From Chrysomallon squamiferum (taxonomy: Eukaryota > Animalia > Mollusca), in NCBI GenBank assembly GCA_012295275.1, contig CM022665.1, forward strand, positions 46,934,001 to 46,998,000: 64,000 bases of DNA, written 5' to 3'. The notes below the pieces were generated by a model, which did no database searches, was not told where the DNA came from, and worked only from the letters and a program-made list of their open reading frames with translations. The translations under genes and the position numbers were made by a program. This document shows, in pieces, positions 32,170 through 32,500 of this stretch (positions within the stretch are counted from its first letter, which is position 1; each line of letters begins with the position of its first letter).

Positions 32170-32500
32170 CTACACTTCTGTGAGCTTGCTGTAGACATTT
32201 TGAGAGGGTGCCGCAGGACCCAGTCTTTCATATTCATTTCCACCAGCAGCAGCCTGTCTAGCGTTAACATAACCGTCATCTCTAAACGTGCTTGTTCCAA
32301 TCTGCTGCGGGTCTTCTGGTTGTTGCGACAGCGGCACATTGCAGTAGTAGCCACTGACTCCTCTGTTTGAGAGATTTCCCACCTGACCACCATCTTGGAC
32401 GTTGCTCGGTCCACTCATTTCATGCTGGTCAATTTGTGGGCTCATAAAGTGGTTGTTTCTTTTTGGAGATTCCTGTTTTGACCTGTGTCTTCTGACATAC
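32170..32500 (-). CDS. Gene B terminal exon: ~110 aa cytoplasmic tail with YCNV, YVNA, YERL-x9-YSKL and C-terminal TEV
   Basis: The tttctttcag acceptor at 32501 joins in phase 2 to the TM exon (FFW|YVRRHRSK stop-transfer). The frame matches ORF 32170..32445, and the exon is GC-richer than its flanks. Confidence 0.88.

Follow-up and report, generated by a model that had tools for sequence, protein, structure and literature searches.

Draper and the oyster receptor CgIgR are invertebrate single-pass receptors with a pair of YxxL motifs in the tail, for which binding to Shark or Syk has been shown (PMC6219719, PMC6994640). The spacer allowed between the two motifs depends on the definition: an ITAM has a spacer of 6-9 residues in PMC9546547 and is written as D/ExxYxxL/I with a spacer of 6-12 in PMC6994640. 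In CgIgR the spacer is 8, and Syk co-precipitates with the receptor (PMC6994640). The ITAM tyrosines of Draper are Y934 and Y949, hence a spacer of 11, and the ligated receptor excludes Ptp69D (PMC6219719).

Receptor tyrosine phosphatases (RPTPs) of the R3 type, such as PTPRJ/DEP-1, PTPRB and fly PTP10D, are defined by FN3 repeats together with a single PTP domain and a C-terminal YxN, the last an ordinary feature of their tails; many also have a long juxtamembrane domain (PMC5336234). Receptor clusters with and without PTP domains have been described in birds and snails. In the avian Trojan family, which has relatives in reptiles and a fish, the RPTP Mystran lies beside the ITAM paralog Thracian, and the ectodomains are subject to gene conversion (PMC4372362). 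The Biomphalaria LG5R/SudRes1 clusters, on which snail parasite-resistance loci rest, contain single-pass paralogs with ectodomains of one type; most lack PTP domains, which are present in subgroup 1C (PMC13712769, PMC12297450); the main texts of these two papers contain no occurrence of the term ITAM. Hydractinia Alr (PMC9546547) and Botryllus Fester (PMC12582321, PMC12065747) are likewise clustered invertebrate receptor families in whose descriptions the terms ITAM and ITIM feature. In Alr, ITAMs or ITIMs are found in the tails, which have diverged further than the ectodomains (PMC9546547). A search of mostly non-subscription literature, supplements aside, did not turn up a description of an invertebrate FN3-type RPTP paralog without a phosphatase or with an ITAM tail, a result that does not show absence from print.

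We analyzed a window of 64,000 nucleotides of Chrysomallon squamiferum DNA containing three clustered paralogs, A, B and C (Table 1). Gene B is real and expressed; it is an RPTP paralog that lacks a phosphatase and has a tail with tyrosine motifs. It occupies 49139-32170 on the minus strand, and its 16 coding exons encode a single-pass receptor of about 920 aa with a signal peptide, Cys-rich and FN3 repeats, a long juxtamembrane domain, a transmembrane (TM) segment and the tail, in that order.

Table 1. Features of the window, in order of position.
Feature	Position	Strand	Basis or remark
Gene A, paralogous R3-type receptor tyrosine phosphatase	2853..27708	+	Tail-to-tail with gene B
Gene B 3' UTR, at least this far	31484..32169	-	X1 contig (record 4) covering 31484-32497 in one piece
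Gene B last coding exon, 109-aa cytoplasmic tail and TAG stop	32170..32500	-	Translation, splice signals, RNA contigs
TEV-COOH, class I PDZ ligand motif, directly 3' of the Leu of YSKL	32173..32181	-	Motif scan
YERL-x9-YSKL, ITAM-like pair	32182..32232	-	Motif scan
YVNA, YxN (Grb2-type) site 2, DDG just before	32260..32271	-	Motif scan
YCNV, YxN (Grb2-type) site 1, also YxxPhi	32335..32346	-	Motif scan
Phase-2 GT-AG intron 3' of TM exon	32501..33025	-	Splice signals
Gene B TM exon	33026..33131	-	Best 21-residue Kyte-Doolittle mean 3.16
Gene B long juxtamembrane domain	33374..35532	-	4 exons: 35532-35374, 34991-34842, 34438-34342, 33444-33374
Gene B ectodomain repeats	36316..46487	-	Cys-rich EB-like modules (5) interleaved with FN3 exons (4)
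Gene B predicted signal-peptide exon	49062..49139	-	Ends CIQ, phase 0
Gene C, third paralog	50243..64000	+	Head-to-head with gene B; runs off the window, intracellular part beyond the edge

The initial annotation described 32170-32500 as the single last exon of a receptor and gave no strand. The coding strand is the minus strand, and translation of 32520-32170 (-) gave ...YVRRHRSKQ...GYYCNVPL...DDGYVNAR...GNEYERLGPAAPSQNVYSKLTEV-stop, with the stop codon at 32172-32170. The acceptor AG lies at 32502-32501, preceded by a pyrimidine-rich stretch, and the exon begins at 32500. Its GC content is 48%, versus 31% in the intron and 3' UTR.

Transcription and splicing were evaluated by aligning contigs from four (X1, X2, X3 and X5) of the five runs with sequence from this region to positions 27000-38400; the first three are RNA runs from one study, and the type of X5 is not on record. 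Contigs from X1, X2 and X3 left the genome match at 32497 and continued for 137, 202 and 277 further letters, respectively. The triplet TAC is present at both 32498-32500 and 33023-33025, and this repetition at the two exon ends accounts for the 3-base offset between 32497 and the acceptor. The X1 contig passed the stop codon into approximately 690 bases of UTR, and a contig from X5 crossed 32350-32586 unspliced. Because the contigs break at the acceptor and that of X1 runs through the stop into the UTR, 32170-32500 is a spliced terminal exon that is transcribed, as annotated. From the GT-AG signals and the phase we infer that the TM exon is joined to the tail exon, a link outside the RNA joints listed; the phase-2 end of the TM exon yields W-YVRRHRSK across the predicted joint.

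The RNA contigs differed from the genome at several positions. That of X1 (record 4) had 13 substitutions, 12 of which were located: 10 in the UTR, one silent, and one changing Gln to His outside the motifs. The remaining substitution is of unlisted position, and the contig also had 4 gap letters. The X2 contig (record 10, depth 2.6) had 6 mismatches in 32145-32279, and over 32112-32497 the X3 contig (record 17) differed by 5 mismatches plus 6 gap letters, with exact positions unlisted for both. The unlocated mismatches and gaps in the three contigs could touch the tail motifs.

Upstream of the tail, the three ectodomain exons scanned matched fn3 with E-values of 2.6e-13 to 6.6e-10. RNA joints (CT..AC) were found in the ectodomain at 36447-36956 and 37240-37717. 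In addition, an X2 contig joined 35374-35532 to 36316-36447, and an X3 contig marked the exon start at 34991. One 31-aa exon of the juxtamembrane domain gave a weak match to PF18861 (PTP_tm) at E 0.01, below the Pfam cut-off. Basic sites resembling furin sites occur in the juxtamembrane domains of both gene B (KRRFRR, 34991-34842, -) and gene A (RRKR, 19929-20054, +), which suggests possible cleavage into two subunits or ectodomain shedding.

The repeat region of gene B has irregularities of its own. Tandem 2.2-kb repeats, each with an FN3 exon and a Cys module, span 36876-41611, and the FN3 exons at 37240-36956 and 39445-39161 are 100% identical; the repeat copy number may thus be recent or mis-assembled. 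Compared with its twin, the Cys exon at 40036-39913 is one A longer in a homopolymer, which is probably an assembly error. The summed contig depth of X1 was about 3,265 over one FN3 exon bin and about 10-26 over the tail, an excess pointing to many copies or paralogs.

Gene A provides the phosphatase counterpart. By eye, it encodes about 6 Cys modules and 11 FN3 repeats, followed by a juxtamembrane domain with RRKR, a TM segment and one PTP domain, and it ends in YEN, YQN and TMM-COOH. Domain matches included EB (E 6.9e-8) and Y_phosphatase (E 1.6e-6). It thus has the FN3 repeats of R3 RPTPs as well as their single PTP domain and their C-terminal YxN, and the subtype is assigned from these features; the best PDB matches, obtained with one exon, were PTPRS, PTPRE and PTPRF. 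The WPD loop of gene A reads WED. The exon after VHC, expected to hold the P-loop and Q-loop (26400-26830, +), is garbled. It holds several partial tandem copies and lacks a clean frame, and represents either an assembly error or a degenerating phosphatase.

The juxtamembrane and TM regions of genes A and B were 40% identical over 166 aa (E 2e-38). The corresponding exons measure 159/150/97/71/106 nt in B and 156/126/94/71/103 nt in A, and their starting phases are identical, 1,1,1,2,1 and then 2. The similarity stops at the phase-2 intron behind the TM exon, after which A continues with the PTP domain and B with the single tail exon. This agreement in sequence and intron phase with a neighboring RPTP bears out the RPTP-derived ectodomain that the initial annotation had proposed. 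Two Cys modules compared between A and B had 21/44 and 19/43 identical residues. A ligand shared by A and B is therefore doubtful, the ectodomains being this far apart (<50% identity). Of the R3 features, gene B has the FN3 repeats and lacks the single cytoplasmic PTP domain; its juxtamembrane introns follow the R3 pattern 1:1:2:1 plus one phase-1 intron. Judged by sequence, gene B is RPTP-derived rather than an RPTP, and its tail is ITAM-like by the wider definitions only.

Other origins for the cytoplasmic part of gene B were considered. Hidden PTP exons were ruled out within the window by tblastn, which found there no second copy of the gene A intracellular part, only A's own exons (E < 6). 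Descent of the tail from the post-PTP tail of gene A was rejected, as 465 and 720 of 5,000 shuffles scored as high as the local alignment (28); there was also no DNA similarity between the tail and the last two exons of gene A. The end of gene A (27647-27708, +) has TMM after NVYQNV and loosely echoes NVYSKLTEV of gene B, a likeness that is not significant. The NVY and the L-T-x-hydrophobic end common to the two tails may be convergent.

The tail contains the motifs listed in the initial annotation: translation and motif scanning placed an ITAM-like pair, two Grb2-type sites and a PDZ-type end on the minus strand. In tail numbering, the YxN sites are at residues 52 and 77 and the YxxL-x9-YxxL pair is at 90-106. 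Phosphorylated YxN binds Grb2, and a C-terminal S/T-x-V binds class I PDZ domains. The predicted TEV-stop has the S/T-x-hydrophobic form at a free C-terminus, and the predicted tail has the cytoplasmic placement 3' of the TM segment. YCNV, YERL and YSKL are at the same time matches to YxxPhi, an endocytosis motif. The pair YERL and YSKL supplies the two Yxx(L/I) of an ITAM. Its spacer of 9 exceeds the strict range of 6-8, as had been annotated, but falls within the published ranges of 6-9 (PMC9546547) and 6-12 (PMC6994640), and lies between those of CgIgR (8) and Draper (11). The acidic residue at -3 of the first tyrosine in the D/ExxYxxL/I form (PMC6994640) is absent, with Gly at -3 and Glu at -1. 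A motif scan of the 109-aa tail found no ITIM, ITSM, hemITAM or NPxY; specifically, nothing matched [ILVS]xYxx[ILV] or TxYxx[VI], and Asn is at -2 of both YxxL motifs.

We evaluated the frequency of these motifs by chance using 200,000 composition-preserving shuffles of the tail; as the motif set was picked after sight of the sequence, the resulting rates are optimistic. Two or more YxN sites occurred in 15,162 shuffles (7.6%), an ITAM-like pair with a spacer of 6-12 in 818, and a PDZ end in 3,441. All three classes coincided once in the 200,000. Of the six tyrosines in the tail, five fall within residues 51-103 and four belong to YxN or YxxL motifs, an arrangement found in 1,036/200,000 shuffles. 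Among the 208 stop-to-stop frames of at least 60 aa in the window, 21 contained an ITAM-like pair, 11 two YxN sites and 10 a PDZ end; the only frame with all three was the tail itself. Thus, the combination stands out, whereas each class alone is common. Two YxN sites by themselves are weak evidence, given their frequency in shuffles and in R3 RPTP tails.

The tail had also been annotated as low-complexity and probably disordered. Disorder was indeed predicted, with a FoldIndex of -0.10 and a single-sequence AlphaFold model of pLDDT 53.7 and pTM 0.12, which is weak evidence by itself. Low complexity was ruled out by a SEG-type test that found no 12-mer at or below 2.2 bits.

Homologue searches returned little. 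A word-based search among longer proteins yielded 219 candidates for the tail, none at E 0.01 or better; the same search yielded no candidate for a juxtamembrane exon, and one, not reaching E 5, for a 40-aa stretch comprising the CNGPL exon and 8 intronic codons. Using phmmer against 1.84 billion representatives, the tail had a single match, P0002, a protein of 1763 aa that has Ig repeats and a bacterial secretion-tail domain, which was judged spurious and rejected as a homologue. Conserved ectodomain exons also drew blanks, so the searched collections seem to be without close relatives, and the blanks show no novelty. In the ESM Atlas, the clusters nearest to the tail were an unnamed, mostly molluscan one (0.88), poxvirus A36 (0.78) and SCIMP (0.76), all below 0.9 and leads only. 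SCIMP and A36 dock SH2 proteins on phosphotyrosines. The juxtamembrane exon had no usable Atlas match.

Comparison with the described systems places gene B among several partial likenesses. Draper and CgIgR share the single-pass layout and the YxxL pair, with recruitment of Shark or Syk demonstrated in their case (PMC6219719, PMC6994640) and predicted for gene B. The ectodomains are unrelated; that of Draper is EGF-type. That of CgIgR is Ig, and gene B is without NPxY. Gene A resembles R3 RPTPs in its FN3 ectodomain and long juxtamembrane domain and, inside the cell, in having a single PTP domain and a C-terminal YxN (PMC5336234). Genes A and B, in contrast, add Cys-rich EB-like modules, a furin-like basic site and one phase-1 intron, giving juxtamembrane phases of 1:1:1:2:1:2 rather than 1:1:2:1:2, and B has no PTP domain. 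The R3 paper describes one R3 type in protostomes and an expansion only in flies, whereas three paralogs are clustered here. The design of gene B is not without precedent, in that, by analogy, Mystran and Thracian and the snail clusters with and without PTP domains resemble it. Mystran, Trojan and Thracian are, as here, three adjacent paralogs with a common FN3-containing ectodomain, one an RPTP and one with an ITAM replacing the PTP domains; Mystran has CCP and FN3 domains and two PTP domains, versus EB-like modules, FN3 and one PTP domain in gene A (PMC4372362). We regard this likeness as analogy and claim no homology. The LG5R/SudRes1 receptors are scavenger-F-like, with MEGF/galactose-binding ectodomains and tandem PTP domains, unlike the receptors described here (PMC13712769, PMC12297450). 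The counterweight to activation is an ITIM tail in Alr (PMC9546547) and would be an intrinsic PTP domain here.

The reading we prefer, with the balance for and against it about even, is that gene B carries a Src-phosphorylated activating tail on a duplicated R3-type RPTP and that this tail would bind Syk/Shark and Grb2. Gene B would have arisen as a duplicate of an R3-type RPTP whose intracellular exons were replaced by one tyrosine-motif exon. Since a juxtamembrane domain of this length is characteristic of R3 RPTPs, the direction of change was presumably PTP loss from an RPTP ancestor. With a tyrosine-motif exon instead of an enzyme domain, gene B likely switches signalling on, not off. Ligand clustering would lead a Src-family kinase to phosphorylate the tail; the phosphorylated YxxL-x9-YxxL pair is then predicted to bind Syk/Shark, and the phosphorylated YxN sites Grb2. 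The phagocytic-type output that the initial annotation had also named is conjectural. As Leu106 belongs both to the PDZ ligand and to the second YxxL, SH2 binding is predicted to compete with PDZ anchoring, providing a possible phospho-switch. The shorter ectodomain of B (4 versus about 11 FN3 repeats) would favor triggering by exclusion of a taller phosphatase, as in Draper/Ptp69D. On this reading, gene B would oppose gene A or gene C.

This activating reading competes with three others. The tail might instead serve trafficking and anchoring, through YxxPhi and the PDZ ligand, in a decoy or adhesion receptor that competes for the ligand of the phosphatase paralog without Syk/Shark. We consider this unlikely, though worth serious attention: the three YxxPhi matches, the class I PDZ end and the 88-95% identity of the ectodomain exons to those of gene C are consistent with it, and ligand competition has been proposed for Trojan and Mystran (PMC4372362), but it leaves unexplained the two YxN sites and the ITAM-range spacing of the pair (818/200,000 shuffles). 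It is improbable that the tail is a generic disordered Src substrate or a drifting exon, with motif labels applied post hoc and no paired-tyrosine function. Such a tail would fit the blank homologue searches, the commonness of each motif class among window frames (21, 11 and 10 of 208), an Atlas recognition of 1618, below the level of known families, and the unlocated mismatches and gaps in the RNA contigs. The blanks, however, are uninformative, as the juxtamembrane exons also drew nothing; moreover, the three classes coincide in only 1/200,000 shuffles and 1/208 frames, and the exon undergoes splicing, has an open frame of 109 codons and exceeds its flanks in GC content.

The initial annotation had named tandem-SH2 binding by SHP2 as an alternative for the YxxL pair. 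Binding to SHP2/Corkscrew would restore phosphatase activity in trans, making the receptor inhibitory or Ras-tuning, and both the two suitably spaced tyrosines and the descent from a phosphatase receptor agree with this. YxN sites often accompany SHP2 docking tails. The proposal is nevertheless weakened, and we judge it quite improbable, as the tail is without an ITSM or an ITIM as defined in PMC9546547 and both YxxL sites have Asn at -2.

If the activating reading is correct, the locus documents how an inhibitory receptor phosphatase can become an activating receptor in one step, by swapping all that lies behind the conserved phase-2 intron after the TM exon. It would also provide a defined invertebrate test case for ITAM signalling versus an intrinsic phosphatase, and for kinetic segregation. 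Should the motifs not be conserved, gene B would be an ordinary truncated RPTP paralog.

Finally, gene C was compared with gene B. Four pairs of ectodomain exons had 39/44, 83/94, 38/40 and 85/94 identical residues (88-95%). Genes B and C thus show the pattern of paired receptors, namely clustered paralogs with near-identical ectodomains. We put forward with considerable doubt that the two are invertebrate paired receptors with homogenised ectodomains and one ligand, in which a PTP end (off) would face a Syk/Shark ITAM with a PDZ-gated phospho-switch (on). They would then represent the avian Mystran/Thracian design, invented independently on an R3 scaffold.

Several minor observations concern this part of the cluster. 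Deep RNA contigs have loose ends at 36316 and 36956, where B-like exons are spliced to exons absent from the window. By eye, the continuations resemble the starts of the membrane-proximal FN3 exons of gene A, and thus at least one further paralog or form is expressed, similar to B but with an ectodomain that is longer and like that of A; this may be gene C. The starts of B and C lie 1.1 kb apart, head-to-head (49139-50243), with a possible bidirectional promoter between them, and the signal-peptide exons of A, B and C end in CIQ, CIQ and GIQ, respectively, at phase 0. An inverted orphan copy of part of a B juxtamembrane exon and the next intron (29643-30123, +; 90% identical to 34967-34491) sits between the 3' ends of A and B.
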